A stretch of DNA of 64,000 nucleotides from an uncultured Candidatus Saccharibacteria bacterium (GCA_964436545.1 CAYTCJ010000001.1:78392-142391); one strand, 5' to 3'. Positions 2,466-58,698 are shown, counted from the first letter of the stretch. Made by a program: numbers and translations. The notes: a model not told the origin generated them from the sequence alone.

Positions 2466-3001
2466 AAAAAATTATTTTACAATCAAAATTGTATAAGTCT
2501 AACAGTGGTTTTACTCTCATAGAACTCCTTGTAGTTATTGCCATTATTGGTCTGTTGGCCAGTGTGGTGCTTGTAAGTTTAAATTCCACTCGAAAAAAAG
2601 CCAGAGATGTTAAACGATTGGCGGATATTAATCAAATCCAAAAAGCTCTGGCGCTCTATTACGATGCCAATGGTCAGTACCCAGCGCCTACGAGTGATGC
2701 CAGCTGTGGTGGATACGATACCACGGCTGACGGAACATTTTTATCGGTTTTAAGAACCGCCGGTTATTTAAGTAAAGATGTTTTAGATCCATCGATTAAT
2801 AGCAGTTGCCAGAATTATAAATATTATAGATATTCAGCGGGTGATAGCGGATGCGATGCCAATAAAGGCGCTTTTTATGTAATTGGAGTGGTGGATATGG
2901 AAACCAGTAGTGGCGCACATCCCGACAATCCTGGATTTTCCTGCACCGGGAGAAATTGGACAGGTGAATTTGAATGGGTAACCGGACAGTATGAAAAATA
3001 A
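2444..3001 (+). CDS. Type IV pilin-like protein (paralog 4); likely real start at TTG near 2495
   Basis: SNSG|[20 protein letters not shown] motif; C-terminal domain has several Cys. Confidence 0.65.
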   Translation: MFMRPLLKKIILQSKLYKSNSGFTLIELLVVIAIIGLLASVVLVSLNSTRKKARDVKRLADINQIQKALALYYDANGQYPAPTSDASCGGYDTTADGTFLSVLRTAGYLSKDVLDPSINSSCQNYKYYRYSAGDSGCDANKGAFYVIGVVDMETSSGAHPDNPGFSCTGRNWTGEFEWVTGQYEK

Positions 3002-3067
3002 ATTTTTATAATTATTTGAATACTTTATTTATTTTAAGCTTTAGTGTTAAAGCTTCACGATTAATGT

Positions 3068-4087
3068 ATGTTGGATATTATTTCTATCGGCGACGCCACC
3101 ATTGATACATTTTTGTTTATTGATGATTTGGAAATTAAAAAAATTAATGGCCAAACCAAGGCGATTTTTAATTGGGGAGATAAATTACCGGTAAAAGAAC
3201 TTTATAAAACTGTGGCGGGTAATGCCGCCAATAACGCGGTGGGGAGTGCTCGGTTGGGTTTAAAGACCGCTTATTATACCGTCTTGGCGCACGATGTCGG
3301 CGGGAGAGAAATTATTCACAAAATGAAAAAGGAAGGCGTATCGGAGCGTTATATTGTAATCGATGAAAAACACAGCACTAATGCATCGTTTGTCATTTCT
3401 CATAAAGGCGAGAGAACTATTTTGGTTTATCACCAACATAGAAAGTATAAACTACCGCCTTTAGTTCCATCGAGATGGGTATATTTAACCAGTATGGGTG
3501 AGGGGTTTGAGTCTATTTATCCCGAGTTGTGCCAGTATATAGACAGATATCAGAGTAATTTGGGTTTTAATCCCGGCACGTTTATGCTCAGAGCGGGAGT
3601 TAAGGTGAACAAAGAAATTTTAAAGCGAACTACGTTGTTATCTGTTAATGTGGAAGAAGCGCAAAGTTGGGTGGGGGAGAATAATCGAGATCCGGAAATG
3701 CTGTGTAAAAAATTGTTCAATCTAGGCCCGAAAATTATTGCCCTTACCGATGGCCGAAGAGGGGCTTATTCCTATAGCGAGCAAGGGTTTTATTATGTAC
3801 CGGAATATCCCGGACCCAGAATAGAAGCCACGGGTGCGGGTGATGGTTTTACTACCGCTTATATTGCCGGGTTATTCTATGGGTTGCCACATGCTCAAGC
3901 ACTTAAGTGGGGTCCGGTAAATGCGGGAAGTGTGGTGCAAAAAATTGGACCGCAAGCCGGTTTACTAACCAAACAGGAAATTGCATTACAATTAAAAAAA
4001 TTAAAAAAATTTGAAACCATCAACATTACCGATGCCAAGAGTAAAAAACAGGTAATGGCTATGGTGGCAAAAAAGAAAGATACATAA
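3068..4087 (+). CDS. PfkB-family carbohydrate kinase (ribokinase/phosphofructokinase-like)
   Basis: PfkB signature GAGDGFTTAYIAGL near the C-terminus; N-terminal GDATIDTF; sits in a glycolytic gene cluster. Confidence 0.7.
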   Translation: MLDIISIGDATIDTFLFIDDLEIKKINGQTKAIFNWGDKLPVKELYKTVAGNAANNAVGSARLGLKTAYYTVLAHDVGGREIIHKMKKEGVSERYIVIDEKHSTNASFVISHKGERTILVYHQHRKYKLPPLVPSRWVYLTSMGEGFESIYPELCQYIDRYQSNLGFNPGTFMLRAGVKVNKEILKRTTLLSVNVEEAQSWVGENNRDPEMLCKKLFNLGPKIIALTDGRRGAYSYSEQGFYYVPEYPGPRIEATGAGDGFTTAYIAGLFYGLPHAQALKWGPVNAGSVVQKIGPQAGLLTKQEIALQLKKLKKFETINITDAKSKKQVMAMVAKKKDT

Positions 4088-4090
4088 TTT

Positions 4091-4306
4091 ATGAGTAACT
4101 TAGCAGGGAATAGCGTAGCTTCCCAAAACCCGATTTTTCGATTTTGCTTAATTGCCTTTTTAGGGAGTGTGGGTTTGGGCTTGGTATTGAGTTGGCGAGC
4201 TACCAGTTTTATTACTTCGGAATATCAAGAAATTCCTCAATCCGCCCGAATGGTAAAAATTAAAAATATGAATAAGTTAACTCAAGAAAATTTAAAAGAC
4301 AAATAA
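4091..4306 (+). CDS. Small hypothetical membrane protein
   Basis: 71-aa ORF with one hydrophobic segment filling the gap between the PfkB kinase gene and gap; no recognisable family. Confidence 0.25.
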   Translation: MSNLAGNSVASQNPIFRFCLIAFLGSVGLGLVLSWRATSFITSEYQEIPQSARMVKIKNMNKLTQENLKDK

Positions 4307-4313
4307 TTTTTAT

Positions 4314-5339
4314 ATGGCACAACACATTAAAATTGGAATCAATGGGTTTGGAAGAATTGGCAGGCAGGCGTTTAAAATCGCTCTCGGTAAGCCGGAAATT
4401 GAAGTGGTGGGGATAAACGATTTGTCACCCACTTCGGTTTTGGCGCATTTGCTGAAATACGATAGTAATTACGGCCGGTTTGGTTTGGAAGTGAGTTTTG
4501 ACGAAACAAATTTAATTGTAGCGGGTAAAAAATATCCGGTAGTTGCAGAAAAAGAACCGGAAAAATTACCTTGGGGCAAACTGGGGGTAGACGTAGTTTT
4601 AGAATGTACTGGCCGGTTTACAGATAGTGAAAAAGCAGGAGCTCATTTGAAGGCTGGGGCAAAAAAAGTGATTATCTCCGCTCCGGCAAAAGACGAAGGT
4701 GTAACCCCCACCATTGTTTTAGGGGTGAATCACGACAAATACAAAGGCGAAAATATCATTAGCAATGCTTCTTGCACGACCAATTGCATTGCGCCGGTTT
4801 TAGATGTGCTAAATAAAAAATTCGGTGTGGAAAAAGCTTTTATGTCCACTATTCATAGTTATACCGCGGAACAGAATTTGGTAGATGGTCCGCCACCCGG
4901 AGGCAAATCCAATGACTTAAGAAGAGCTCGGGCGGCTGCCATCAACATTATTCCCACTACGACTGGCGCTGCCATTTCCGCCACCGAAGCCATTCCATCG
5001 CTCAAGGGCAAATTTGATGGTGTGGCGTTTAGAGTCCCAACGCCTGTTGGTTCATTATCGGATTTTACAGTTTTACTTAAAACTAATGTTACTAAAGAGC
5101 AGGTGAACCAGGCCTTTATTGAGGCTTCGAAAAATTCCCATTATCAAGGATACTTGGAAGTTTCTACGGAACCTTTGGTGCTTAGCGATATTGTGGGCGA
5201 CCCGGCCTCTTCGATTGTAGATTTGTCTTTAACTCAAGTGGTAGATGGCAATTTTATAAAAGTGGTGGCTTGGTATGACAACGAGTTTGGCTATAGTAAT
5301 CGGTTGGTAGAGGAAGTAATTTTAATACAGCGACACTAA
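4314..5339 (+). CDS. gap: Glyceraldehyde-3-phosphate dehydrogenase (type I)
   Basis: IGINGFGRIGR NAD-binding motif and the active-site SNASCTTNCIAP segment. Confidence 0.95.
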   Translation: MAQHIKIGINGFGRIGRQAFKIALGKPEIEVVGINDLSPTSVLAHLLKYDSNYGRFGLEVSFDETNLIVAGKKYPVVAEKEPEKLPWGKLGVDVVLECTGRFTDSEKAGAHLKAGAKKVIISAPAKDEGVTPTIVLGVNHDKYKGENIISNASCTTNCIAPVLDVLNKKFGVEKAFMSTIHSYTAEQNLVDGPPPGGKSNDLRRARAAAINIIPTTTGAAISATEAIPSLKGKFDGVAFRVPTPVGSLSDFTVLLKTNVTKEQVNQAFIEASKNSHYQGYLEVSTEPLVLSDIVGDPASSIVDLSLTQVVDGNFIKVVAWYDNEFGYSNRLVEEVILIQRH

Positions 5340-5357: not shown

Positions 5358-5735
5358 ATGACGCTAATAATAGAACCACAATTATCCTTTAAGATTACAG
5401 GGTTGTGTTTTAAGGTTCATAATAAACTTGGCAGATTTGCAAGCGAAAGACAATATTGTGATGAATTAGAAAAGTTGTTCATAGAAACCGGATTGAGTTA
5501 TGAAAGAGAATGTGATATTAAAACCTTAGTCCCAGATTCCCCAAAAGGTAATAGAGTAGATTTTTTAATTGAAAAGCGAATACTGTTAGACGCAAAGGCT
5601 AAAAAGTTTGTGACCAAAGAAGACTATTTACAAATGATTCGTTATTTAGAGGCATCAAAACTGAAACTCGGATTAATTGTAAATTTTAGAAATACTTATA
5701 TTAAACCGAAGCGTGTAATTAATAGTAAAATTTAA
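5358..5735 (+). CDS. GxxExxY family protein (PD-(D/E)xK nuclease-like small protein)
   Basis: 125 aa with the typical C-terminal YLQMIRYLEASKLKLGLIVNF pattern and central DFLIEKRILLDAKA of the GxxExxY / TIGR04256-like family. Confidence 0.6.
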   Translation: MTLIIEPQLSFKITGLCFKVHNKLGRFASERQYCDELEKLFIETGLSYERECDIKTLVPDSPKGNRVDFLIEKRILLDAKAKKFVTKEDYLQMIRYLEASKLKLGLIVNFRNTYIKPKRVINSKI

Positions 5736-10284: not shown

Positions 10285-11988
10285 ATGCAGAAAAAGTGGA
10301 AAGTCAAGCCGAAAGTTCCCAGTGAATTAGCATCAAGATATGAAAATTTTGATCCGTTTTTAGCGCAACTGTTATATAATCGGGGACTTACTGAGTCGGA
10401 TCAAATTACAGAATTCTTAAACACCGAATACGAAAGGCTACATAGCCCTTTTTTATTTAAGGATATGAAAAAAGCGGTTAAGCGAATTTGGCAAGCCATT
10501 GAGCAACAGGAAAAAATTTGTATTTACGGCGATTACGATGCCGATGCCATTACGGCCAGTGTGGTTTTACTCCAGACTTTTCGTTATTTGGGGGTGGAAG
10601 CAGGTTACTACATCCCAGACAGGTTTAGCGAAGGTTATGGGATTAATTTGCAAGCTTTGGAAAGTCTTAAAAATCAAGGGGTTAAATTGATTATTACGGT
10701 TGATTGCGGAACTAATGCCCGAGAGGCAGGCGAATGGTGTAAAGAGCATAATATTGATTTGATAATTTCCGACCACCACGAAATTATTGGCGAAATGCCT
10801 AAGGCTTTTGCGCTCATTAATCCTAAAAATCCACAAGAGATGTATCCGGACCGAGAAATTACCGGAGTGGGGGTGGCGTTTAAGGTGGCGTGTGGAATAT
10901 TAAAAAATCAAAAATCAAAAATCAAAAATCAAAATTTTATGGAAGGTTGGGAAAAGTGGCTTTTAGATTTAGTGGCCATTGGCACAGTTGCCGATTGTCA
11001 TAAGCTGTTAGGGGAGAATCGAATTTTGGTGAAGTTTGGTTTAAAGGTATTGGCTAAAACCAAATGGCTCGGGCTTCAAGCGCTTATAGCTTCTGCCGGC
11101 TTGGATTTTAACCGGCAGTTACCCGATACTTATACTTTAGGCTTTGTGCTTGCTCCTCGGCTGAATGCCACGGGTCGGTTAGAGCATGCCGGTTTGGCAG
11201 TAGATTTGTTAATGTGTAGCGATGCCATTAAAGCCCAGCAGTCGGCTATGGCCATTGAACAACTGAATCTCAAGCGCCAAGAAACCACGGCATTAATTTT
11301 GAGCGAGGCCCGAGAGCAGGCTTTGCAAATTCAAAATCGACCGGTGTTGGCCATTATGAATGCGCAGTGGCATAAGGGCGTCGTGGGGTTGGTGGCCGGA
11401 AAATTGGCAGAGGAATTTTACAAACCCACTTTTATTTTGGCACAAGAGGGAGCCGAGGCAACCGGCTCGGCTCGCACAGTGGGTAATTTTAATGTAGTGG
11501 ATGCTTTAACTTATTCCGCTAAACATTTAATTCGTTTTGGGGGGCACAAGCAAGCTGCGGGTTTAAGTTTGGATCCCAATAAGTTTGAAAATTTTTATAT
11601 CAGTCTGCTCGAGTTTGCCAACCAAAATCTAACCGAGGATGATTTATCACCCATATTGGAACTGGAAGCAGAGCTAAATGCTTCTGACCTACAACTTACA
11701 ACTTACAACTTACTCGCAAGCCTAGAGCCTTTTGGAGTGGGCAACTTTAAACCTAAGTTTCTAATTAAATCAGCGGAAATCATTTCGCAAAAACCCGTGG
11801 GTGCCAACCAGCAACATTTACAAATGCAAATTCAAATCGGCAGTAAGGTGATTCCGGCTATTGCGTTTAATTTTTCTCCGGTTAAAATTCCCGGTTTGGT
11901 AGATATAGCTTGTGAGTTGCTATTAGATGAGTGGCAAGGTAGAAAAAATTTAAAACTCAGAGTTATAGATATTATTGGAGTGAGTTAA
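10285..11988 (+). CDS. recJ: Single-stranded-DNA-specific exonuclease RecJ (contains two in-frame short tandem repeats)
   Basis: DHH motifs (YGDYDADAITAS, ISDHHE) and the DHHA1 region; repeat-encoded KNQKSKIKNQN and LQLTTYNLL segments. Confidence 0.85.
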   Translation: MQKKWKVKPKVPSELASRYENFDPFLAQLLYNRGLTESDQITEFLNTEYERLHSPFLFKDMKKAVKRIWQAIEQQEKICIYGDYDADAITASVVLLQTFRYLGVEAGYYIPDRFSEGYGINLQALESLKNQGVKLIITVDCGTNAREAGEWCKEHNIDLIISDHHEIIGEMPKAFALINPKNPQEMYPDREITGVGVAFKVACGILKNQKSKIKNQNFMEGWEKWLLDLVAIGTVADCHKLLGENRILVKFGLKVLAKTKWLGLQALIASAGLDFNRQLPDTYTLGFVLAPRLNATGRLEHAGLAVDLLMCSDAIKAQQSAMAIEQLNLKRQETTALILSEAREQALQIQNRPVLAIMNAQWHKGVVGLVAGKLAEEFYKPTFILAQEGAEATGSARTVGNFNVVDALTYSAKHLIRFGGHKQAAGLSLDPNKFENFYISLLEFANQNLTEDDLSPILELEAELNASDLQLTTYNLLASLEPFGVGNFKPKFLIKSAEIISQKPVGANQQHLQMQIQIGSKVIPAIAFNFSPVKIPGLVDIACELLLDEWQGRKNLKLRVIDIIGVS

Positions 11989-12156
11989 CATTTTATCATT
12001 TTATCATTCTAACATTCTAACATTTTAACATTTTAACATTCTAACATTTTAACATTCTAACATTTTAACATTCTAACATCTTATCATCTTAACATCTTAA
12101 CATTCTAACATGGGTTGTTTTTTGATAGATGATAAAATATTATTATGTTAGAATGA
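11988..12156. repeat. Tandem 8-bp repeat array (CATTYTAA, about 15 units) followed by a short inverted copy
   Basis: cattttaacattctaa... units between recJ and rnhA; 3' segment gatgataaaat...ttagaatg is the reverse complement of the units. Confidence 0.8.
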
Positions 12157-12655: not shown

Positions 12656-13954
12656 GTCGCGGTCATCTAAAATCCATAAAGTCTTTTTATCTTCCGACAA
12701 GAAGCAGGTTTTAATATTTTTGCCCGAATAGAGCAAGAATTGGTTGGGTGTTGGCTCAGAGCTTAATTCTGAGGCGTAAATTTGGTTTTGGTGAGTAAAG
12801 ATGACATAGTCTAAATCTTCTTCAATCATCGGGTGGAGCAGTGAATAGTTAGGGAGGGAGGCGGAGGAGAGTTGGTTTTTTTGGTTAAGGTAAAAGAAGG
12901 ATTGATTAGTTTGCCAAATAAGTCCGTTAGTGGGGCTACTTAGGGCTTGAGTAAAGGTGCGGGAAATTTCCACTAAGTTTCCGGTTTCTAGACCGAATTG
13001 GTATAAATTTTGGGCGGAATGGAAATAGACGAATTTTTTATTAACCGAGTTTAGTGTAATGGATTTTAACGGGGAGGGTAGTGTGTAGAGAGTTTGGAGG
13101 TTTTGAGTTTTTACATCTAAACTTTTTAATTCGGCGGATTGGGCGGTTTCGTTTATAAAATAAAGTTTATCTTCTTGATATTGAAAATCAGTCAGGGTTT
13201 CGGTAGTGCTGAGTAGTAAAGGTTTTTTGCTCTTTAGGCTTAAAAGATAGGGTTTATTTTTATCCAGAAAGATAATTTCGCCTTGGTTATTGAGAGTTAA
13301 ATGCGTAGCGGAATTAGGCAGGGTATCGGTAAGGTCTAAAAGTGTTTGGGTATTGAGTTCTACCAGTAAAACCGGTGGTTTTTTTTGAGTTGGCTGGCCG
13401 GTTAACAATAAAAAATTGCCATTGGGGGAAGCTGTAAGTTTATTGGTGACTTTTGGTAAGGTAAGTTTTGCCGGAGTGCTGGAAGAATTATTTTTCTTGA
13501 GCCAATACAAGGTTGTATTATCTACAGCGAACAGCTGGTTGTCTTTTACCCAGAGGTCGTTTAGGTTGGTAAGCAAAGTAGAGGTGGCGCTAGGGGCTCT
13601 GAATAAAATAATTTTTTTGTCTTCGGGTTTGGCCCAAAAAACTTTACTCGGTTCCAGTTTAATGGTGGTTTGCCAAGTTTGGTAATGAGGTTTTTGGGCG
13701 GTTAATAAGTATTGGCCTTGTTGTAAATCGCGAATGTATTTATATTCCGCGTTGCCCAAATTTTGTTCCAAGTTATTTAGGTAAATGGTTGCATCCGCCG
13801 GCTCAATTTTAAAAGCAATAATGCCGGTAGAAATAATTTTTTTGGTATGCCAGTTTAATTTTTTTCCACTCACAAAGAGAATAATTAGCGGTACGGTAAT
13901 GCCAAAAATTATAAAGCCAGCGACAATTAAACTGTATCTAAATTTTTTATTCAT
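12632..13954 (-). CDS. Hypothetical membrane-anchored protein (N-terminal TM, PEGA-like segment, beta-propeller-like C-terminal region)
   Basis: N-terminal hydrophobic helix; PADATIYLNN is PEGA-like; long repeat-like beta-rich tail. Confidence 0.4.
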   Translation of the reverse strand: MNKKFRYSLIVAGFIIFGITVPLIILFVSGKKLNWHTKKIISTGIIAFKIEPADATIYLNNLEQNLGNAEYKYIRDLQQGQYLLTAQKPHYQTWQTTIKLEPSKVFWAKPEDKKIILFRAPSATSTLLTNLNDLWVKDNQLFAVDNTTLYWLKKNNSSSTPAKLTLPKVTNKLTASPNGNFLLLTGQPTQKKPPVLLVELNTQTLLDLTDTLPNSATHLTLNNQGEIIFLDKNKPYLLSLKSKKPLLLSTTETLTDFQYQEDKLYFINETAQSAELKSLDVKTQNLQTLYTLPSPLKSITLNSVNKKFVYFHSAQNLYQFGLETGNLVEISRTFTQALSSPTNGLIWQTNQSFFYLNQKNQLSSASLPNYSLLHPMIEEDLDYVIFTHQNQIYASELSSEPTPNQFLLYSGKNIKTCFLSEDKKTLWILDDRDLNFISLR

Positions 13955-14272
13955 AAGGTTTACGCACTACCATTTTTTTAAACTGGCAAAGCCAGATTTT
14001 CAAAAGTAGTTTTGGTCAATTTCTTCGTTATTTTCTTAAAATTTTACTCATCGTAGGCAGGGCTACGCTTTTGCAAAATCCCTGCCTGCCGGCAGGCAGG
14101 TTAAGCAAATGTCTTGAAATTGCCTCAATGCGTAAGCCCTATTTAAGTAATAGTGTAGCTTAAAACGTGAGTTGTTTCAATATTGGTAATTTGTTATAAT
14201 TGGCTTTGAATTAAGTATGAAGTAGCGGTAATTATTAAATTTTGCTTAATTCTGACTTCTTAATTTTATACT

Positions 14273-15915: not shown

Positions 15916-16309
15916 GCTACAATCCGAGGCGTTAATTAGTTTTGGGTCAATCCTCAAATGGGGTTTGGTAATGTGGTTAATTTTGTTTGTATTCAAGTGG
16001 TGGTTTTTGGCTTGGCTGGGGGCTGTGGCTTGGGTAGTGTGGGTGTATTACGTTTTAATTATTTTAGCCAGTCGAAAATTAAGCAGAAAGTTTGGAGTAA
16101 TTAATATTCTGGAAGCCGGATTTATTGGGATTATTTGGGGAATTATGATTTTATTTTTAGATTCTTTGGTGGCCAAAAAATTTTTAGATGCCTCTGTATT
16201 TGTGAATAAGGCATATTGGCTGAGTTATTTTGTAATGTTTGTGTCAGTATTTTTTTTACACCAAAAACGGCATATTGCTATTCGGCAGGAACAAGCGCAT
16301 CACCATTAG
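15902..16309 (+). CDS. Hypothetical multi-TM membrane protein (possibly MreD-like)
   Basis: 135 aa, about four TM helices, position downstream of mreB. Confidence 0.35.
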   Translation: MAKYKLQSEALISFGSILKWGLVMWLILFVFKWWFLAWLGAVAWVVWVYYVLIILASRKLSRKFGVINILEAGFIGIIWGIMILFLDSLVAKKFLDASVFVNKAYWLSYFVMFVSVFFLHQKRHIAIRQEQAHHH

Positions 16310-16488
16310 CAAACTCCCGCACCACCACTTTTTTAAACTGGCAAAGCCAGCTTTATAAAAAGTGGTTTTGGTCAATTTCTTCGTTATTTTTTGAGAATTT
16401 TATTCACCGTAGATAAACTACGCTTCATAAAATTCTCAAAAAATGCCTCGAAATTGACTCAATGCGGTAGTTTGCTTATTAAATTCCA

Positions 16489-17300: not shown

Positions 17301-18680
17301 TTGTTATCAGTTATGACTCCCATTATCTTACATTTAGATATGAATAGTTATTTTGCCTCGGTGCTTCAGCAAGACAACCGGGCTTATAGAGGCAAGGTTT
17401 TAGGTGTGTGTGAGCATTTGGGCGGAATTATTATTTCTGCCAGCAAAGAAGCAAAAAAATGGGGTATAAAAACCGGCACGCCGGTGTGGGAAGCCAAAAA
17501 ACTTTATCCCAAAATTATTTTAACTCATACTACAGCGGAAAGGTTTAGGTTTTATACTCGTCGGTTAATTAAATTGGTTTCCGACTATACCGATCAGGTG
17601 GAAGTCTATAGCATAGATGAAGTGTTTCTTGATATTACGCGGACGTGTAATATCAGCCAATCAGCTTATCAGCATACAAGCTTGTCAGCTGGAGGGGGAG
17701 TTAATCCGTTTGCGGAAGCGGTAAATATGGCTTTGGAAATTAAACACCGCATGAAGCAGGAGGTGGGGGATTATTTAACTTGCAGTATTGGCATTGCGGA
17801 AAATAAAGTTTTAGCGAAAATCGGTTCAGATTTTAAAAAGCCGGATGGCATAGTAGTGATACAAAATTCTAAATCCGAAATTCTAAATCCGAAACAAATT
17901 TTAAATTCTAAATCCCAAATCTTAAATTTGCAAAAAGAAGATTTGTATCATTGCTTAAAGCTCACAGATGTGCCGGGAATTGGGGAGAGACAAGCAAAAA
18001 ATTTACATGCTCTAGGCATTAAAACTTTAGTGGATTTAAAACATTATCCCCAAAGTCATTTAATGGCTCGTTTTGGTAGAATTACCGGACATCATTTGCA
18101 TAATTTAGGCCAATTAAATGCTTCGTGGAAAACTTTGGTTCATCAACAACAAGAAATTAAATCAATCGGTCATATGTACACTTTGCCTAAAGAGTATCGA
18201 AAGCCGGAATTTTTTGAACCCGTGTTATTTAAACTGTGCGAGATGGTGGCTAGGAGGCTGAGGCGGAAAAATTTAGAAGGGAATGTAATCCATGCTTTTT
18301 GTTATTTTGAAGACCATCAAAATTGCGGTAATAGTTTGAAGGTGGGGGATTATATAAGTGATGGGCGGGAAATTTTTAGGTATGCCTCGGATATTTTAAA
18401 AATTTTAAATTCCCCCGCCTTCGGCACCCCCTCTTTGGCCACAGAGGGGGGAGGGGGAGTTAGGAAATTTAGCATGATTGGTATTACCATATCTAATTTA
18501 AGACCAGCCACAGGGCAATTAAGTTTATTTGGGCATAAAGAAGAGAATACAGGGTTATTAAAAGCTTTAGATAAGATTAATAACAAATATGGCGAATTCA
18601 CCGTAGCTCGTGCGCCAATTTTAGCTACCGGCAAAGTTTTTCGCGACAGTGTGGGTTTTGGCAGAGTTAAAGAGCTCTAG
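17301..18680 (+). CDS. dinB: DNA polymerase IV (Y-family) with in-frame repeat and hairpin insertions
   Basis: ILHLDMNSYFASV, SIDEVFLDIT and the PGIGERQAKNLHALGIKTLVDL HhH motif; inserts NSKSEILNPKQILNSKSQILNLQ and NSPAFGTPSLATEGGGGVRKF. Confidence 0.85.
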   Translation: MLSVMTPIILHLDMNSYFASVLQQDNRAYRGKVLGVCEHLGGIIISASKEAKKWGIKTGTPVWEAKKLYPKIILTHTTAERFRFYTRRLIKLVSDYTDQVEVYSIDEVFLDITRTCNISQSAYQHTSLSAGGGVNPFAEAVNMALEIKHRMKQEVGDYLTCSIGIAENKVLAKIGSDFKKPDGIVVIQNSKSEILNPKQILNSKSQILNLQKEDLYHCLKLTDVPGIGERQAKNLHALGIKTLVDLKHYPQSHLMARFGRITGHHLHNLGQLNASWKTLVHQQQEIKSIGHMYTLPKEYRKPEFFEPVLFKLCEMVARRLRRKNLEGNVIHAFCYFEDHQNCGNSLKVGDYISDGREIFRYASDILKILNSPAFGTPSLATEGGGGVRKFSMIGITISNLRPATGQLSLFGHKEENTGLLKALDKINNKYGEFTVARAPILATGKVFRDSVGFGRVKEL

Positions 18681-41346: not shown

Positions 41347-42423
41347 TTAGGCTTCGGGTTTAAAATTTTCCCAGTGGTATTTGTCGGGGTTAAAGCCTTC
41401 TCCACAAGTGGTTTCAATAAGCGCCGTGGCAATTTGGTAGGGGTCTAAGTTGGCAGCGGGGCGCCTGTCTTCCAAATAACCTTTTTTAGCATTGGCAGTG
41501 GCCATGGGGATTCTAATGCTCGCGCCTCTATCGGAAACGCCATAGCGGAATTGTTTATAACTGCAAGTTTCGTGTTTGCCGGTTAAGCGTTTGTCGTTGT
41601 TGGCGCCATACACGCGCATGTGGGCGTTATGAAATTTGCCCAGTTGTTCACAGGCTTTATTAATCACTTCCAGTCCGCCATCTTGGCGCATGGCTTTGGT
41701 GGAAAAATTGGTATGGCCACCGGCGCCATTCCAATCGCCAGTCATGGGTTTGGGGTCCAGTTTGGCATACATTTCAAAATCTTCGCCATGGCGATATAAA
41801 ATCCAACGTGCCAGCCACAACTGGTCGCCGGCTTCCAAAGGCGGAAGTACGCCAATTTGAAATTCCCACTGCGCCGGCATGACTTCGGCATTAATGCCGG
41901 AAATGGCAAAGCCGGCTTTTAAACAATCTTTTAAATGGGCTTCTACAAGTCTTCGGCCATAGACTTCGTCGCTACCCACTCCGCAATAATATTTGCCTTG
42001 CGGGTGAGGAAAACCGTCTTTAGGCCAGCCATAGGGCCAATCTTTGCGGTAGAGGGTGTATTCTTGCTCAAAGCCAAACCAAGGTTCGTGTTCTTGATAT
42101 TTTTCCGCCACTTGTCTAAGCACACTGCGGGTGTTAGTGGGGTGGGGAGTGCCGTCGGCATTTAAGACTTCGCACATGACTAAAATGTTAGGCTCTCCCC
42201 GAATCGGGTCGGGCATAAAATACACCGGACGCAAAGCGCAGTCGGAAAAATGACCTTCGGCTTGTTCGGTGCTACTGCCGTCAAAACCCCAATCGGGGAT
42301 GTCTTTAACTTCTCTTACTGGGCCATCTAAAACTTTGGTTTTGGAACGGAGTTTGGCAGTGGGTTTTTTGCCATCCATCCAAATATATTCTGCAAAAATT
42401 TTTGCCATATATTTTTTTGCCAA
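41347..42423 (-). CDS. glnA: Glutamine synthetase, type II (eukaryote-like)
   Basis: Collinear with GSII: DWGFDGSSTEQAEG, PWFGFEQEYTL, NAEVMPAQWEFQIG, GNWNGAGGHTNFSTKAMR. Confidence 0.9.
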   Translation of the reverse strand: MAKKYMAKIFAEYIWMDGKKPTAKLRSKTKVLDGPVREVKDIPDWGFDGSSTEQAEGHFSDCALRPVYFMPDPIRGEPNILVMCEVLNADGTPHPTNTRSVLRQVAEKYQEHEPWFGFEQEYTLYRKDWPYGWPKDGFPHPQGKYYCGVGSDEVYGRRLVEAHLKDCLKAGFAISGINAEVMPAQWEFQIGVLPPLEAGDQLWLARWILYRHGEDFEMYAKLDPKPMTGDWNGAGGHTNFSTKAMRQDGGLEVINKACEQLGKFHNAHMRVYGANNDKRLTGKHETCSYKQFRYGVSDRGASIRIPMATANAKKGYLEDRRPAANLDPYQIATALIETTCGEGFNPDKYHWENFKPEA

Positions 42424-42795
42424 ACTTCAAAAAAGTGAAGTTATTACCAAAAGTTTAAGGGTTGTTTAAATTTAGCCTTGGGTTTTTGGTATCTAAACTT
42501 TGCTTTTTAGAATTTTAACAATAGAATTCACAGGACTGCATGTTTTAGCTAGGGCAAAGCCCTAAGCTTTAAAACATGCATTTAGCCAATTACTTCGTTA
42601 TTTTGCTACGCTTTTTGTCGCCGTATGATGCATACGTCTCCAAAAATTCTCGCAAAATGTCTTGTTCTTGACTAAACCTGTAAATTCTAAATTAATTTTT
42701 TATATTTTTAATATAGCAAATTTTTCGGAAAAAAAGGTGTGGACAAAGGGGGTGGTAAGTTGTAAGTTGGTAAGCGAGTAAGTAAATAAGCAGGT

Positions 42796-42840
42796 AAGAA
42801 AATAAGAAAAGCGCGCCGGTGGATGGTACCGGCGCGCGGG
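42796..42840 (-). terminator. Intrinsic terminator on the minus strand (GC hairpin plus U-run)
   Basis: Minus strand reads GCGCGCCGGUACCAUCCACCGGCGCGC followed by UUUUCUUAUUUUCUU. Confidence 0.6.
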
Positions 42841-42849
42841 AAAGCTTGA

Positions 42850-43047
42850 TCACTTGCGCGGAAAGCACTCGTGATCGGCTCGCCCCGCCCACTCAACGGT
42901 GGGCGACGGTTGTTTCGGGGGTTCCGCCGGCGGTCGCACCGGCGGGCGGGGGTGCTCAAGTGAGCAACCCCCTGAAGTGGTGGGGGTGGGCAGGGCGTCG
43001 GCCGCATGGCGGTCGACCTCCGGCCCGTGAGGATCCCATTCTTGCAT
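42850..43047 (-). CDS. GC-rich small ORF (65 aa, Pro-rich) with consensus RBS; an alternative reading is a structured RNA
   Basis: AAAGGAGGATACC-ATG RBS, ORF spans a sharply GC-rich segment, and an intrinsic terminator follows immediately. Confidence 0.35.
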   Translation of the reverse strand: MQEWDPHGPEVDRHAADALPTPTTSGGCSLEHPRPPVRPPAEPPKQPSPTVEWAGRADHECFPRK

Positions 43048-43286
43048 GGTATCCTCCTTTCAAGGAGGAGTTTAAAGGAAAGCTGGGAAAATTGTCAAAT
43101 CTTAATGATAGTTTAAAGAAATAATGTTTTGCAATTTATTATATAGAAAATGGATTCCAGATCCATCCACCAGATGGCGGACGGGATGACAAGACAGAAT
43201 TTATCAGACCAATATGACCAATACGTCTGATGGCGTAGTTTGTGTGTTATAATATTCAATATCCAAATAATTAAACTAGACCACCA

Positions 43287-45772: not shown

Positions 45773-46615
45773 ATGAATTGCATTTACATCAGCGACACTC
45801 TGGGCGACGACAATGCCCGGGGTCGCATCACCACGCGTCTTTTGACGGGGATCGGCGAGTCTGTCTTCACCTCGGTCACCCCAATTGGGGTGGATAGCGA
45901 AGTAGAGGGGTTCGTTCAGTTGGTTGACCTGCTGGACGCAACCCGGGGGAACAAGGCGGTAATTCTGTTCAACGTCGCCCCTAGGGGCGTGAACAAGAAG
46001 CGACTGCCGAACGGTTCGCCGTTTGGACATCTGCGGGTGGGGAACGCGGATATTTTCCCGACTGTGGAGGGTCGGGTGCTTCCGCTCCTTCAAAATCTTT
46101 TGAACAGGCGCCTGCGGGTGCGAGTTCACGAGATTTGTCCAGAGGTGCTGGGGGCGGTCGGGATTCCGCGGTACCAGTGGAAGTACGTGACTTCCACGCA
46201 GTTCCGTTCCTACGAGTTCCTTCCTGACCTGGCCAATGCGGTCATGTCAGGTAAGGAAGTTCCGGGACGGGAAATGGCGGTGGCACGGATCCGTGGGGGC
46301 GGGGGTTTCGTCGGGATAGTGGACAAGTTCGGCAACATTAAAACAACGGCGTTGCCGAGCGACATCGGCTTTCGTCCCGGTCGCACGCTTGCCCTGGATC
46401 TTGGTGGCACAGAGGTTCGCCTCCCGTGCTACCCGAAACTCAAGGACGTCCCGTGTGGTACCCTCGCCGCGGTCGTGGGTTCGTCTGGCCTCTGGGTCGG
46501 GCGGGCGAACAAGCGGTTCGTTGAGATAGTTGTGCAGAAAGGGGACGCGTCGTCCCGTTTGTACGACCTCACCGGGGTCGCCGTGGCCCCGGGACTCAAA
46601 TTGCAGTTCGCGTAG
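45773..46615 (+). CDS. GC-rich, likely horizontally acquired gene; SAM hydroxide adenosyltransferase (DUF62 / fluorinase-chlorinase) family-like
   Basis: GGGAGG RBS 5 nt before ATG; about 60% GC by eye; motifs IYISDTLGDDNARG (compare SDLGTTDDS), VAPRGVN (compare VDPGVG), DKFGNIKTT (compare DxFGNV). Confidence 0.45.
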   Translation: MNCIYISDTLGDDNARGRITTRLLTGIGESVFTSVTPIGVDSEVEGFVQLVDLLDATRGNKAVILFNVAPRGVNKKRLPNGSPFGHLRVGNADIFPTVEGRVLPLLQNLLNRRLRVRVHEICPEVLGAVGIPRYQWKYVTSTQFRSYEFLPDLANAVMSGKEVPGREMAVARIRGGGGFVGIVDKFGNIKTTALPSDIGFRPGRTLALDLGGTEVRLPCYPKLKDVPCGTLAAVVGSSGLWVGRANKRFVEIVVQKGDASSRLYDLTGVAVAPGLKLQFA

Positions 46616-46624
46616 ATGCGCAAA

Positions 46625-46665
46625 AGCGGGCGGACCTTAACCAGTCTGCCCGCCGTTTTTATTTA
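46625..46665 (+). terminator. Intrinsic terminator after the GC-rich gene
   Basis: GCGGGCGGAC...GTCTGCCCGCC hairpin followed by GTTTTTATTTATTT. Confidence 0.7.
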
Positions 46666-46857: not shown

Positions 46858-48378
46858 TTATCCCAAACTGTGCCTTAACACAGCTTGTTTTTCTATGAGT
46901 TTAGTTAATGATTTTTGAGTAAAAATTTGTTTATGGAGCTGGGCGGATAACTGTTGGTGGGCTTTGGCTTGTGGGGTTTGGGCGCTAAATTCGGTGAGTA
47001 AATAACTTTCTAAAGCCTGAACATCTTGCCAAACCTGTTTTAAACCCGGGAATTTTTTACTTAAAGCCAAAAGCCCCGGTTTGTACAGGAATTGACCGGC
47101 GAATAATAAATCTGTTTTTAAATTCAGATAAGTTTTTTCTAAAAGTTGAATTGTGCCATTATCTATGGCGGTTTTTATGCCTCTGCCGGTGCCAATTAAT
47201 TCCGGAGGCAAGCCTAAAGCATATAAACTGCCGGTAAAGCTAATGGCTCTGGGCAAGCGCACTTTGCCTGTGCCTCGACTATAACCAAACAAGCCAATAT
47301 GTTGAACTCTTTCCCGTCTTTTGGGAAAATGTAAAGCCACTTGATTAATGAGAGGAGCCAGGCTTTCTACGGTGGGTTGGTAAACAGCTTCAAAGGTTTG
47401 AGTAAGTTGGATTAAAGTTTGTTCTTCGGTTGGGCTTAGGGTTTTGGCTGAGTGTTTGGGGAAAGTTTCGTTAAAGTAAGTAAGCGCTTTTTTAACTTGC
47501 GCTTTGGGAAAATCGTAACGAAAAGCACTTTGGATGGTGGTGGTTTTTACGCCTCGGTATTCGGCACAAAAAGCTTCCGGTGAATTGGGGTTAAGTCCGC
47601 CTCGAAAGGGTAAAGTGCCGGCGCCAATAATTGGGTAGAGGGGCAAACGATGTTTTTTACTAAAGTGCAAATAGCGGGAAAAGGCAAGTTTTATGGCCAA
47701 AACTGTGGGGACCAAACCGGAGTTTAATGCCGGGTCGGAACGCGCCACAAAAGGCCTTAAATATTTGGGTCGGCTTTTAAATTTGTGTTCATAAAGCGCC
47801 AAATATTTTTCTAAAATTTTATGAGAATGAATAATGCTGTTAACGGTTTCAAACAAAGGAATGACTTCTAAAAACATTTCGCAATTTTCTTCCATGCGGT
47901 TAAGCGGGTGTCTTAAGCAAGCAATTTCTTTAAAAGCTTCTTGAATGGCAATTAACTCCTCGGCGGTTTCGGTCATGGGTAAAATTACTTCAAACAAAGG
48001 GGGGGCGTGAAGTTGGGTTTGGCGAGCTAGGCCGGTTGCCGTGAGTATGCCCATTAGCGCCCGAGACATTCGGAATTCGTGCTGAACTTTGGGGTTGGGC
48101 AAACGGAAAGTTAAAAATTTATTTTTGCCTAATTGATGAGTTTTAAAATAATCGTAATGATCGGCTAACATTCTTTCTACTACCGATTCATCGACTAATT
48201 TACCTTCCCAGTCCCACATGTATTCATCGGTATTTAAGTCTTTAAAACAGGTAAAGCTTTCTTGGGTTTCGTGGACAGCCGGAATAAACGCACTGTTTTT
48301 TTGCCAAAAAGGCACCGAGGCGTGGTCGGGGTGCTGAGTGGCCATACAGCTGGGGATTTTGCGGGGGGATTTTTTCAT
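46858..48378 (-). CDS. ppcA: Phosphoenolpyruvate carboxylase, archaeal type (PepcA family)
   Basis: N-terminal MATQHPD signature of archaeal-type PEPC; about 500 aa length; internal similarity blocks. Confidence 0.7.
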   Translation of the reverse strand: MKKSPRKIPSCMATQHPDHASVPFWQKNSAFIPAVHETQESFTCFKDLNTDEYMWDWEGKLVDESVVERMLADHYDYFKTHQLGKNKFLTFRLPNPKVQHEFRMSRALMGILTATGLARQTQLHAPPLFEVILPMTETAEELIAIQEAFKEIACLRHPLNRMEENCEMFLEVIPLFETVNSIIHSHKILEKYLALYEHKFKSRPKYLRPFVARSDPALNSGLVPTVLAIKLAFSRYLHFSKKHRLPLYPIIGAGTLPFRGGLNPNSPEAFCAEYRGVKTTTIQSAFRYDFPKAQVKKALTYFNETFPKHSAKTLSPTEEQTLIQLTQTFEAVYQPTVESLAPLINQVALHFPKRRERVQHIGLFGYSRGTGKVRLPRAISFTGSLYALGLPPELIGTGRGIKTAIDNGTIQLLEKTYLNLKTDLLFAGQFLYKPGLLALSKKFPGLKQVWQDVQALESYLLTEFSAQTPQAKAHQQLSAQLHKQIFTQKSLTKLIEKQAVLRHSLG

Positions 48379-48630: not shown

Positions 48631-48663
48631 AACCCCTCCTGGAACAGGAGGGGGAGGGGGTGG
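48631..48663 (+). repeat. Hairpin element (forward copy) directly upstream of the DUF559 gene
   Basis: CCCCTCCTGGAACAGGAGGGGGAGGGGGTGG; ends 4 nt before the ATG and supplies GGAGG as RBS. Confidence 0.7.
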
Positions 48664-48667
48664 TAGA

Positions 48668-56724: not shown

Positions 56725-56938
56725 GCGAATCAGCAGTCAATAATCAAATCAGTAAGTAAGTTGGTAAGTTGTAAGTGAGTAAGTAGAGAAGTTGGTAAAA
56801 ATAAATTTAGGGCGACGTGGATGTAGAGTCCAAAATGCCTTAGGTCTGCGGTAGGGACGTGCTCAAGTGAGCAGGTATTATTATTGTCAAATAAAGTTTA
56901 AAAAATTAATAAAATTATTTTAGAAAGGAATCAAATAT

Positions 56939-57339: not shown

Positions 57340-58698
57340 TTGAGAGGTTTTGGTCTATGGGTTATAATGGGTGGTATGAAACAGAACTCCCCCAGACCCC
57401 TTCTTTCGAAAAGAGGGAAGAGAGAGCTCCCTAAGGGAGAGAGAAAAAAGGTGCTGATTGCATTAAGCGGTGGAATTGACAGCGCGGTTTCGGCATATCT
57501 ACTTATCAAACAGGGCTTTGAGGTGGAAGGTGCGTTTATGAAGAATTGGACGAGCCAAGAGGGATTACTTAAAAACGAATGTCCGTGGCTTTCGGACAGG
57601 CGAGATGCCTTAAGGGTGGCCGGATTTTTAGGCATTAAACTGCATACGTTGGATTTTGAAAAGCAATACCAAAATACGGTAATGAAGTATTTTTTTTCCG
57701 AATACAAAGCCGGCCGAACCCCCAATCCGGATGTAATGTGCAATAAGGAAATTAAGTTTAAATTGTTATATAATTGGGCTCGCCATCACGGATTTGATTA
57801 TTTAGCTACGGGACATTATGCCCAAGTAGTAAGTAGTAAGTTAGTAAGTAATAAGTATGAAAAACAAAAAACTTACAACTCTACAACTTACAACTTACAA
57901 CTTTTTCGGAGTAAAGATGAATTCAAAGATCAAACTTACTTTATCTATAACATCAAAAGCGAACAATTGCCACATTTATTATTCCCAATTGGGGGGATGA
58001 AAAAAACCGCTGTGCGTGAGTTGGCGCGAAAAATAAAATTGCCCAATGCGGAAAGAAAAGAAAGTATGGGCCTCTGTTTTGTGGGTAAAATTCGGCTGAA
58101 AGATTTTTTACAACAAAAAATAAAAGCGAAGAAAGGGGAGATAGTGTTGGCTTCGGGTTTGTCATCTCGGCCTTTGAGCCGGGATCTAGAATTAAAGAAC
58201 TGGATTCCGGATAGCCTTTCGGGTGCACTCAAGGCTTCTGGAATGACAGAATTGGTTATTGGACAGCATTTTGGGCTTCATAACTACACTATTGGCCAAA
58301 GACAGGGGATACAAGTGGGCGGTAAAGGCGGGCCGTATTATGTTTTAAGTAAAGATTTAAAGCATAACCGACTTTATGTAACCAATGATCCCAATGACAA
58401 AAGGTTGTTAGTCAAAGAAGTGCAAATTCATAGTGTGAATTGGATAACTCCCCCTAACCCCCTCTTTGGAAAAGAGGGGGGAGGGAGAATTTCCCCTCTT
58501 AAAATAAGAGGGGATAAAGGGGTGATATTACTTGGTAGATATCGTCATCAGGGGGAGCTGGTGCCACTTACAGTATCTCAAATAAACCAAGATTTATATA
58601 AAATAATTTTTAAAACTCCACAAAAAGCTGTTGCCAGTGGGCAAAGTTTGGTATTATATAAAGGTAAGGAATGTGTGGGAGGGGGAGTAATTGGGTAA
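57340..58698 (+). CDS. mnmA: tRNA-specific 2-thiouridylase MnmA with three in-frame repeat/hairpin insertions
   Basis: PP-loop LIALSGGIDSAV, catalytic CNKEIKF and GLCFVG; insertions at 57387-57445, 57826-57903 and 58448-58524. Confidence 0.85.
   Translation: MRGFGLWVIMGGMKQNSPRPLLSKRGKRELPKGERKKVLIALSGGIDSAVSAYLLIKQGFEVEGAFMKNWTSQEGLLKNECPWLSDRRDALRVAGFLGIKLHTLDFEKQYQNTVMKYFFSEYKAGRTPNPDVMCNKEIKFKLLYNWARHHGFDYLATGHYAQVVSSKLVSNKYEKQKTYNSTTYNLQLFRSKDEFKDQTYFIYNIKSEQLPHLLFPIGGMKKTAVRELARKIKLPNAERKESMGLCFVGKIRLKDFLQQKIKAKKGEIVLASGLSSRPLSRDLELKNWIPDSLSGALKASGMTELVIGQHFGLHNYTIGQRQGIQVGGKGGPYYVLSKDLKHNRLYVTNDPNDKRLLVKEVQIHSVNWITPPNPLFGKEGGGRISPLKIRGDKGVILLGRYRHQGELVPLTVSQINQDLYKIIFKTPQKAVASGQSLVLYKGKECVGGGVIG

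Follow-up and report, generated by a model that had tools for sequence, protein, structure and literature searches.

The region described here lies within a stretch of 64,000 nucleotides from an uncultured Candidatus Saccharibacteria bacterium (GCA_964436545.1 CAYTCJ010000001.1:78392-142391; referred to throughout as the window), and consists of a short GC-rich block, at positions 42796-43060, that carries a candidate small gene upstream of the glutamine synthetase gene glnA. The block has a GC content of ~68%, against 39.5% for the window as a whole; over 200-nt intervals the GC fraction reaches 0.675 (42800-42999) and 0.63 (42900-43099), with flanks of 0.31-0.44. In a 150-nt scan of all 64 kb, just two islands exceeded the mean of the window by 20 points or more, those at 42781-43090 and 45791-46650, in agreement with the original prediction, which was made from the sequence alone and had singled out a sharply GC-rich block upstream of glnA; the second GC-rich gene that it had placed 2.7 kb from the block is likewise present, at 45773-46615. 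The small open reading frame (ORF) does lie upstream of glnA (41347-42408, minus strand), which follows ~390 nt past the terminator of the small gene and encodes a type II, eukaryote-like glutamine synthetase. The other neighbors are genes for a sigma factor, the transporter YhhQ (Vut_1), and a PfkB kinase. The nearest named relatives of the predicted YhhQ-type transporter belong to Peregrinibacteria and Gracilibacteria (58-61% identity), and this protein places the window in the Patescibacteria, or Candidate Phyla Radiation (CPR). Long ORFs of the window are intact with translation table 11, and TGA is rare, serving as the stop of 1 of the 38 frames of at least 200 codons.

Related loci were recovered by exact-protein look-up of neighbor proteins in other assemblies. 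Two of them (L001 and L043) are identical to the window, while the remaining variants are represented by L002-L006 (JGI 3300045333 and others), L007 (JGI 3300045398), L040 (JGI 3300045396), and L039, a metagenome-assembled genome contig from NCBI (CAZFXC010000089) that begins inside the element and is therefore partial. The complete variants are thus those of the window, L002, L007, and L040, and with L039 the comparison involves five in all; glnA adjoins the small gene in each of these five loci. The strains differ at 22-47 of 1062 glnA positions (96-98% identity).

The signals that surround the ORF, all read on the minus strand, are those of a putative monocistronic gene of ~260 nt, running from ~43061 to ~42800, with its own sigma-70 promoter, Shine-Dalgarno (SD) sequence, and terminator. 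The promoter (43069-43098) consists of TTGACA (43098-43093), an 18-nt spacer, and TAAACT (43074-43069), with 10 of 12 consensus matches, and transcription would start near 43061/43060. In L002 and L040 it reads TTGACA-N18-TAAAAT, such that hexamers and spacing are kept around a spacer of unrelated sequence. A weaker promoter-like site, TTGCAA-18-TATCAT, lies upstream at 43105-43134 and duplicates part of the promoter module; no antisense promoter near the gene was detected in the promoter scan, which is not a rigorous test. Between promoter and ORF is a DNA palindrome, CCTCCTTGAAAGGAGG (43053-43068), whose 3' half holds the SD motif GGAGG (43057-43053) and whose 5' half, located between the -10 hexamer and the presumed start, is probably outside the RNA; the palindrome is kept in L007 and takes the form CCTCTTTGAAAGGAGG in L002 and L040. 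The ribosome-binding site has the arrangement AGGAGG-N5-ATG, with AAAGGAGGATACC preceding the ORF and a context of AAAGGAGG-ATACC-ATG. The coding sequence (42850-43047; MQEWDPHGPEVDRHAADALPTPTTSGGCSLEHPRPPVRPPAEPPKQPSPTVEWAGRADHECFPRK) extends for 65 codons from an ATG at 43047-43045 to a TGA at 42852-42850, exactly as had been reported, and the SD and ATG of this 65-residue ORF are found in the four complete variants. The claim that the ORF is directly followed by its own intrinsic terminator also holds: a GC-rich stem-loop (42837-42811) and a U-rich tail (42810-42796), together spanning 42796-42837, have the sequence GCGCGCCGG-TACCATCCA-CCGGCGCGC followed by the U tract TTTTCTTATT, with 10 pairs (9 of them G-C) and a 7-nt loop, and they are conserved in every variant save for two loop bases.

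A tandem duplicate of the promoter-SD-ATG module is located upstream of the real gene in L002 (5950-6062, minus strand) and L040 (~150-285). Its ORF is degenerate, being of 2 codons in L002 and of 8 codons, with a GTG start, in L040, and is followed by a perfect 10-bp GC hairpin, CCCCGCCTCTCGCGAGAGGCGGGG; the module looks like a decayed second cassette.

Comparison of the variants reveals a locus whose edges are fixed and whose body is not. From GGAGG to the terminator the window is 82% identical to L040 and 66% identical to L002, the 3' third of which is not alignable, while the interiors of the window and L007 have no DNA similarity at all (local alignment score 19, shuffle mean 19.1). The flanks behave differently: upstream, 234 of 247 aligned bases match between the window and L007, and downstream the window is ~98% identical to L002, L040, and L039. 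L040 is a mosaic, in which an L002-type promoter and H2/H3 segments (hairpins described below) are combined with window-type H1 and C-terminal segments. L039, which has an L007-type allele (class B), has a glnA closest to that of L040 (class A), with 22 of 1062 differences, so that allele class does not track the flanks. These comparisons show a locus that, at the sequence level, is idiomorphic, with at least two unrelated allele classes and mosaics between near-identical flanks. This hypervariability, the most unusual trait of the locus, had escaped the original prediction. Many assemblies stop here, contigs L008, L039, and L044-L047 ending at or inside the locus, which fits the co-existence of alleles within samples, with sequencing bias against GC-rich or hairpin DNA as the alternative. 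Beside yhhQ in more distant Patescibacteria (L009-L013, YhhQ 57-61% identical) there is neither such a GC island nor a proline-rich ORF with an SD; an island in L012 was rejected as the same gene, and corresponds to a methyltransferase-like gene and a tRNA. It is of note that the non-coding segment between terminator and glnA (42424-42810) is ~98% identical in L002, L039, and L040, where synonymous divergence (dS) of glnA is 0.10-0.22; being conserved far above the synonymous sites of glnA and yhhQ (dS 0.10-0.25), it would be either under strong constraint or recently homogenized.

From conserved SD-ATG spacing, in-frame indels, and the ratio of non-synonymous to synonymous differences (pN/pS), we conclude that translation uses the ATG frame and that purifying selection of moderate strength acts on it. 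The arrangement GGAGG-N4-6-ATG occurs in the four complete variants, including L007, whose sequence diverges straight after GGAGG. In DNA alignments of the alignable pairs that were not constrained by frame, all four indels are multiples of three (3, 3, and 6 nt between the window and L040, and 6 nt between L007 and L039). In the ATG frame pN/pS is 0.36 for the window and L040 (p 0.011) and 0.30 for L007 and L039 (p 0.023), against 1.3-2.4 in the remaining forward frames; a similar signal comes only from the antisense frame with which third positions are shared. Nei-Gojobori estimates of omega are 0.27-0.28 within allele classes and 0.75-0.79 when the window or L040 is compared with L002, and those of the neighbors are 0.00-0.03 for glnA and 0.08-0.10 for yhhQ. 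With dN values of 0.07-0.34 and dS of 0.25-0.46 for the small gene, and neighbor dS of 0.10-0.25, we conclude that its non-synonymous evolution is, by these estimates, 10-100 times faster than that of its neighbors. The GC content of third codon positions (GC3) is 0.66-0.75 across alleles; in the window, all long ORFs apart from the other GC-rich gene have values of 0.20-0.49.

These data bear on the idea that the locus encodes only a structured, non-coding RNA, of a class not yet described, and that the ORF is an accident of GC-rich sequence. Such an RNA would account for the very low fold z-scores and for stems that are kept while loops vary (see below), and nearly every frame of the sequence is open and the peptide lacks homologues. 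Its rejection is favored by the restriction of pN/pS values below 1 to the ATG frame in two independent pairs, by the four in-frame indels, by the reappearance of an ATG, properly spaced from GGAGG, in L007 although that allele is unrelated, and by the replacement of the whole body with unrelated sequence, a change not normally tolerated in a class of functional RNA; this explanation is thus considered quite unlikely.

Public annotations of the region do not follow the selected frame. NCBI records a 101-residue ORF on the plus strand (42819-43124), which was rejected as the gene in that it is not open consistently in other alleles; Logan records a 99-residue ORF on the minus strand (42708-43007) that is out of frame and reads through the terminator; and in L002 yhhQ is over-extended to 272 residues across the small-gene region. 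Annotation pipelines mis-call regions of this kind by picking ORFs other than the selected frame, and a GC-rich island in an AT-rich genome should not automatically be taken for non-coding RNA.

The transcript is predicted to fold into a chain of hairpins. The first (43029-43056, minus strand, as are those that follow) pairs both the SD (GAGGA/UCCUC) and the start codon (CCAU/AUGG) with codons 4-7, at -14.3 kcal/mol. A 5' hairpin that occludes SD and AUG is predicted in all four complete variants (-14 to -22 kcal/mol); its arms co-vary in L040 (GGAGGGA/UCCCUCU), and the non-homologous L007 allele employs other partner sequences. Hairpin H1 (42988-43026) has the form GGGC.GG..GUCG.CCGC-CAU-GCGG.CGAC..CC.GCCC, and in L002 the conserved 3' arm has a different 5' partner, the register of pairing being shifted. 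H2 (42948-42972; GGGGGUUGCUC-ACUU-GAGCACCCCC) includes the 15-mer TGCTCACTTGAGCAC (42966-42952) and holds a compensatory change at alignment columns 98 and 112, where the U-A pair of the window has become A-U in both L002 and L040, an exchange that joins a synonymous change to a His-to-Leu change. H3 (42924-42945) is the perfect CCGCCGG/CCGGCGG hairpin that the original prediction had pointed out, CCGCCGG(UG)-loop-(CG)CCGGCGG, with an invariant stem and a variable apex; the other pairing proposed at that time as perfect, GUCGGCCGC/GCGGUCGAC, contains one A/C mismatch. H4 (42886-42905) reads CGCCCAC-CGUUGA-GUGGGCG, and the composite hairpin H5 (42838-42885) encloses the stop codon. In L002 both H4 and H5 are replaced by unrelated hairpins in the same places, CGUCGGC-CCA-GCCGACG at that of H4, and hairpins of unrelated sequence surround the stop codon in L002 (GAAGACUGG...CCGGUCUUC) and L007 (GGUCACGG...CCGUGACC).

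Relative to dinucleotide shuffles, the fold of the minus strand has a z of -8.1 and that of the plus strand one of -5.0, and 3 of the 14 perfect GC-rich hairpins of the window (stem of at least 7 bp) fall in this 265-nt block. When coding sequences were compared with 200 permutations of their synonymous codons, each of the four alleles proved more stable (z = -2.2, -6.5, -4.9, and -3.4). Variation was then related to the minimum free energy structure of the window over codons 1-48, the stretch in which three alleles can be aligned: 15 of 79 paired positions (19%) are variable, against 37 of 65 unpaired ones (57%; p 4e-6), and the contrast is present at each codon position, including the third (6/28 and 12/20, p 0.014). 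Between L007 and L039, 6 substitutions fall in stems and 9 in loops, a split that carries no information on this point. Five pairs have changes on both sides, of which one, in H2, is cleanly compensatory, in a test limited by the small number of sequences. These comparisons show that the predicted RNA hairpins are under selection beyond the needs of the encoded peptide.

The original prediction had offered a structured RNA as an alternative to the ORF; the hairpins do matter, as their stability and stem conservation indicate, while a known Rfam family (among 4227, with SRP, 6S, RNase P, tmRNA, and the glutamine riboswitch included) is ruled out. At gathering thresholds, Rfam models matched three tRNAs in the window and only tRNAs in L002, L007, and L040, and a permissive search of the region alone gave scores of 14-16 bits (E 1.2-9), far under the thresholds. 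The same hairpins could nevertheless serve a dual-function or mainly regulatory small RNA, whose hairpin chain with C-rich linkers (CCCACCCCCACC, ACCCCCGAAAC) would act in trans, for instance by pairing with G-rich SD regions of target mRNAs, as in RsaE/RoxS and RNAIII, the ORF being secondary. Such a role is compatible with stems conserved past coding needs, with C-rich unpaired stretches between hairpins that can be read off the predicted folds of all alleles (the RNA is 35-39% C), with occlusion of SD and AUG, and with the size, promoter, and terminator of the transcript, which resemble those of small RNAs. It is less easily reconciled with purifying selection on the frame in two allele classes and indels that keep it, or with the linkers, whose positions vary as much as any, contrary to what a seed region would lead one to expect; proline codons also yield C-rich runs, Rfam gave no match, and no target was identified. 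A mainly regulatory RNA is consequently regarded as possible but doubtful. The closest known systems of this kind, RNAIII/hld of S. aureus, SR1/SR1P of B. subtilis, and SgrS/SgrT of E. coli, share with the locus a short, structured, terminated RNA with its own promoter and a small ORF, C-rich unpaired segments, and constraint on both structure and frame. The locus differs from them in having no sequence or Rfam relationship and no identified pairing target, in an ORF that nearly fills the transcript, and in a body that is swapped between strains.

The predicted peptides of the different alleles are 56-65 residues long, with 22-23% proline, a net charge of -1 to -4, one or two cysteines, PxxP and PP-PPPPP motifs, and grand average of hydropathy (GRAVY) values of -0.39 to -1.16, the last being that of the 65-residue, 22% proline window peptide. 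No hydrophobic segment was found in any allele (the highest 15-residue hydropathy window being at most 0.23), nor any signal peptide, membrane segment, secretion leader, or double-glycine motif in the window peptide. The product would thus be an acidic, hydrophilic, and probably disordered proline-rich microprotein; the possibility of a type I toxin mRNA was rejected on the basis of this hydrophilicity. Searches of Pfam, NCBIfam, PHROGs, and PADLOC yielded no match to the peptide. The search for homologues proposed with the original prediction was carried out, and succeeded only within the lineage: a profile search of 5.8 billion proteins recovered the L007 allele as sole homologue, with none beyond. 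A phmmer search of 1.84 billion representatives gave one match, to a 13-fold repeat protein, judged spurious as its score was summed over the 13 repeats. Blastn against plasmid and phage collections and a scan of viral contigs provided no match, a metagenome-wide scan for the terminator pattern returned only four unrelated GC-rich terminators, and a literature search found no description of such a gene in CPR bacteria.

Near-identical flanks around non-homologous small-peptide alleles, mosaics, and purifying selection within classes recall the comC, agrD, and comX pherotype loci. Unlike those, the small gene is not flanked by a gene for a receptor or for processing that co-varies with it, and its product has neither a secretion leader nor a double-glycine motif. 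A precursor of a ribosomally synthesized and post-translationally modified peptide, or a pheromone locus, was rejected in view of the neighbors (glnA, sigma factor, yhhQ, and PfkB kinase) and of an N-terminus that is not conserved between allele classes.

Taken together, the explanation toward which we lean, with a confidence only somewhat above even, is that the locus is an independent small gene whose hairpin-chain mRNA encodes a proline-rich orphan microprotein, idiomorphic between strains, that binds a polymorphic partner under balancing or diversifying selection. The expression signals and flanks are conserved, while the segment between SD and terminator exists in at least two unrelated classes and their mosaics, each class being under purifying selection. 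Because the first hairpin locks SD and AUG, translation would probably be gated and would require that this hairpin be melted, whether by heat, by a helicase, or with the help of a standby ribosome, and the remaining hairpins would probably give a long-lived transcript or slow the ribosome. Balanced, class-structured polymorphism with purifying selection within classes is typical of molecules that recognize polymorphic partners; the peptide would bind a fast-changing or polymorphic partner from a host, a phage, or a sibling cell, and balancing or diversifying selection would keep the polymorphism. Binding would suit a disordered peptide rich in PxxP motifs; the biological role is one that we infer entirely from sequence.

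Several considerations weigh against this explanation. With most of the six frames open in each allele of such a 68% GC sequence, an open frame is useless as coding evidence, and two of the four indels fall in 3-nt or 6-nt repeats. The comparisons involve five variants, one of them partial, all from one species-level lineage, with 15-50 substitutions per pair. Hairpins could also arise and persist through quasi-palindrome template-switch mutation, with no selection acting on an RNA function, and the predicted burial of SD and AUG in a -14 kcal/mol hairpin could equally mean that the RNA is rarely or never translated. Finally, the analysis turned up neither a homologue nor a domain nor a partner gene that co-varies with the locus, so that the proposed role lacks direct support.

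A related explanation regards the locus as an expression site in which the promoter-SD and terminator are fixed and unrelated, GC-rich, hairpin-built coding cassettes are exchanged, with the conserved stems as points of recombination or template switching; the RNA would be both regulatory and messenger, in a manner akin to contingency or antigenic variation in an episymbiotic CPR bacterium, and silent donors could exist elsewhere in the genome. We regard this as fairly unlikely. The target of a diversity-generating retroelement was rejected: no second copy of the body exists in the 64 kb, and allele differences include indels and every type of substitution.

An orphan small gene is of a known kind; what is unusual is the combination of constraint on both frame and hairpins in two unrelated allele classes, a GC island in an AT-rich CPR genome, and idiomorphic alleles. 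To our knowledge, little has been explored of the small proteins and structured RNAs of CPR/Patescibacteria, bacteria thought to live attached to host cells. With its compact size (~300 bp), selection on both frame and hairpins, and unrelated alleles between near-identical flanks, the locus is a candidate, well suited to study, for a strain-specific interaction factor or a dual-function RNA. Interest would be modest if the locus proved to be merely a fast-evolving orphan gene.

The position of the gene ahead of glnA evokes two further explanations. In the first, it would be a leader-peptide attenuator, or cis leader, for glnA, translation of the proline-rich ORF setting terminator read-through. 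Both genes have the same orientation, three alleles have only 11-12 nt between the stop and the terminator stem, and polyproline motifs can stall ribosomes. In L007, however, the stop-to-terminator distance is 36 nt (range 11-36 nt), 56-65 codons are long for a leader peptide, Gln and Glu codons are not enriched in the ORF, and no antiterminator pairing is common to the alleles because their bodies are unrelated. The gap of ~390 nt, with a promoter-like site and a 150-nt insert in it, the variable spacing, and the lack of a shareable antiterminator make attenuation so unlikely that we give it hardly any credence. As in trpL and the pyrBI leader, the small ORF ends just before an intrinsic terminator ahead of an amino-acid metabolism gene; unlike them, it has its own promoter, 390 nt and a promoter-like site before glnA, and neither a conserved antiterminator nor a regulatory codon bias. 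The -10 hexamer of the promoter-like site in question, TTAAAA-16-TAGAAT (42711-42684), coincides in part with a perfect inverted repeat of 12 bp, TAGAATTTACAG-TC-CTGTAAATTCTA, a candidate operator, which is intact in L040 (~676-700) and split in the window (~42540/42690) by the 150-nt insertion.

In the second, the peptide would be a small disordered regulator of the adjoining glutamine synthetase, like the cyanobacterial IF7 and IF17. IF7 (GifA) is a natively unfolded protein of ~65 residues, and the likeness extends to probable disorder, size, and a genetic association with nitrogen assimilation; the peptide is encoded beside glnA in all five loci. Against this, it bears no sequence relation to IF7 or other known families, the enzyme here is of type II and nearly invariant (0-5.5 non-synonymous differences) while the hypervariable peptide is replaced by an unrelated one, and no small proline-rich ORF with an SD stands beside yhhQ in the sampled distant relatives. 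A role in regulating glutamine synthetase is thus highly improbable.

The original prediction had also described a partial copy of the element at 56806-56880, and had viewed it as dispersed. The shared core and GTAAG repeats do co-occur at the second site: the 15-mer within H2 is found in the window only at 42966-42952 and 56873-56859 (minus strand), and clusters of at least four GTAAG only at 42755-42794 and 56752-56779. The GC-rich body is, on the other hand, single-copy in the window, so that a dispersed element is not supported; a blastn search of the element against the window returned the 15-mer (E 0.37 alone) and a 72-nt microsatellite/terminator tail (56823-56756, 78% identity, E 5e-6). 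The microsatellite, CTTAC with an 8-nt period (NNCTTACN, ~6 units, 42752-42803, minus strand), lies downstream of the terminator and is a flank feature, probably outside the transcript. Its unit number varies by strain, with extra or variant units in L002, L039, and L040. The same microsatellite, which reads GTAAG on the plus strand, is also present at 56740-56795 and, more weakly, at 57826-57903 and 11692-11713, and there are other 8-nt tandem repeats in the genome, for instance TTAACATT x15 at 11961-12135.

A further possibility is that the block has no function, and that a plastic intergenic region has here accumulated selfish or unstable GC-rich palindromes or retains a decaying piece of GC-rich DNA gained by horizontal transfer. 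Another repeat family of these genomes has a 20-nt GC palindrome in some copies and lacks it in others, foreign-looking GC-rich genes with strain-variable cargo lie 2.7 kb away, and L002 and L040 carry the decayed tandem promoter-SD-ATG copy. The conservation of promoter hexamers, SD, ATG, and terminator, purifying selection on the frame, a GC content held in an AT-rich genome across alleles with dS of 0.25-0.46, and a body present once in 64 kb that has no blastn match in plasmid or phage collections all argue in the other direction, and absence of function is considered very unlikely. As in Rickettsia palindromic elements and the GC clusters of yeast mitochondria, GC-rich hairpin DNA occurs here in an AT-rich genome and is read as an ORF, and small GC palindromes have been gained or lost in this lineage; unlike those multi-copy, mutually related elements, the body is single-copy in 64 kb, and has its own promoter, SD, and terminator.

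The repeat family in question is itself structured, its copies being ~150-170 nt long and located on the minus strand at ~42540-42690, ~13950-14125, and ~16300-16470 of the window, and at ~5385-5570 of L002. It comprises a core, AAAATAACGAAG(T/A)AATTG(G/A)C(T/C)AAA, and a long terminal hairpin, whose stems co-vary (ATGCATG..CATGCAG, ACTAC..GGTAGT, ACCAC..GTGGT) round a conserved apex, GGCTTTGCC. Upstream of glnA, a copy is found in the window, L002, L039, and L045 but not in L040, where the empty site is a perfect palindrome, GAATTTACAG|TCCTGTAAATTC; the repeat is therefore either a mobile element, resembling miniature inverted-repeat transposable elements, or an inserted small RNA gene. The family has no Rfam match, and no TnpB/IscB-like gene adjoins its copies. 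The 20-nt GC palindrome, CCTGCC(T)GCCGGCAGGCAGG, is located at the same place inside two of the copies, window copy 1 (14081-14100) and that of L002 (~5520-5540), and is missing from window copies 2 and 3, so that small GC-rich palindromes are gained or lost in the lineage. In addition, intergenic GC-rich hairpins of the form CCCC(T)CT...AGAGGGG, followed by GGAGGGGGAG, are present at 18428-18461, 48631-48664, and 58458-58491, and may be terminators or elements similar to repetitive extragenic palindromes.

The other GC-rich gene (45773-46615; 8245-9183 in L002) has a GC3 of 0.70 and a weak match to the C-terminal domain of S-adenosylmethionine hydroxide adenosyltransferase; being 88% identical between the window and L002, it is conserved rather than hypervariable. 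Next to the PfkB kinase, the GC-rich cargo varies among strains: L007 has a cupin and a methyltransferase (2852-3991), and L004 an aconitase B fragment (4005-4499) on a contig that may be chimeric. Finally, the window encodes, at 46858-48378, a phosphoenolpyruvate carboxylase of the PEPcase_2 family (Pfam PF14010), which we take to be of the archaeal type.

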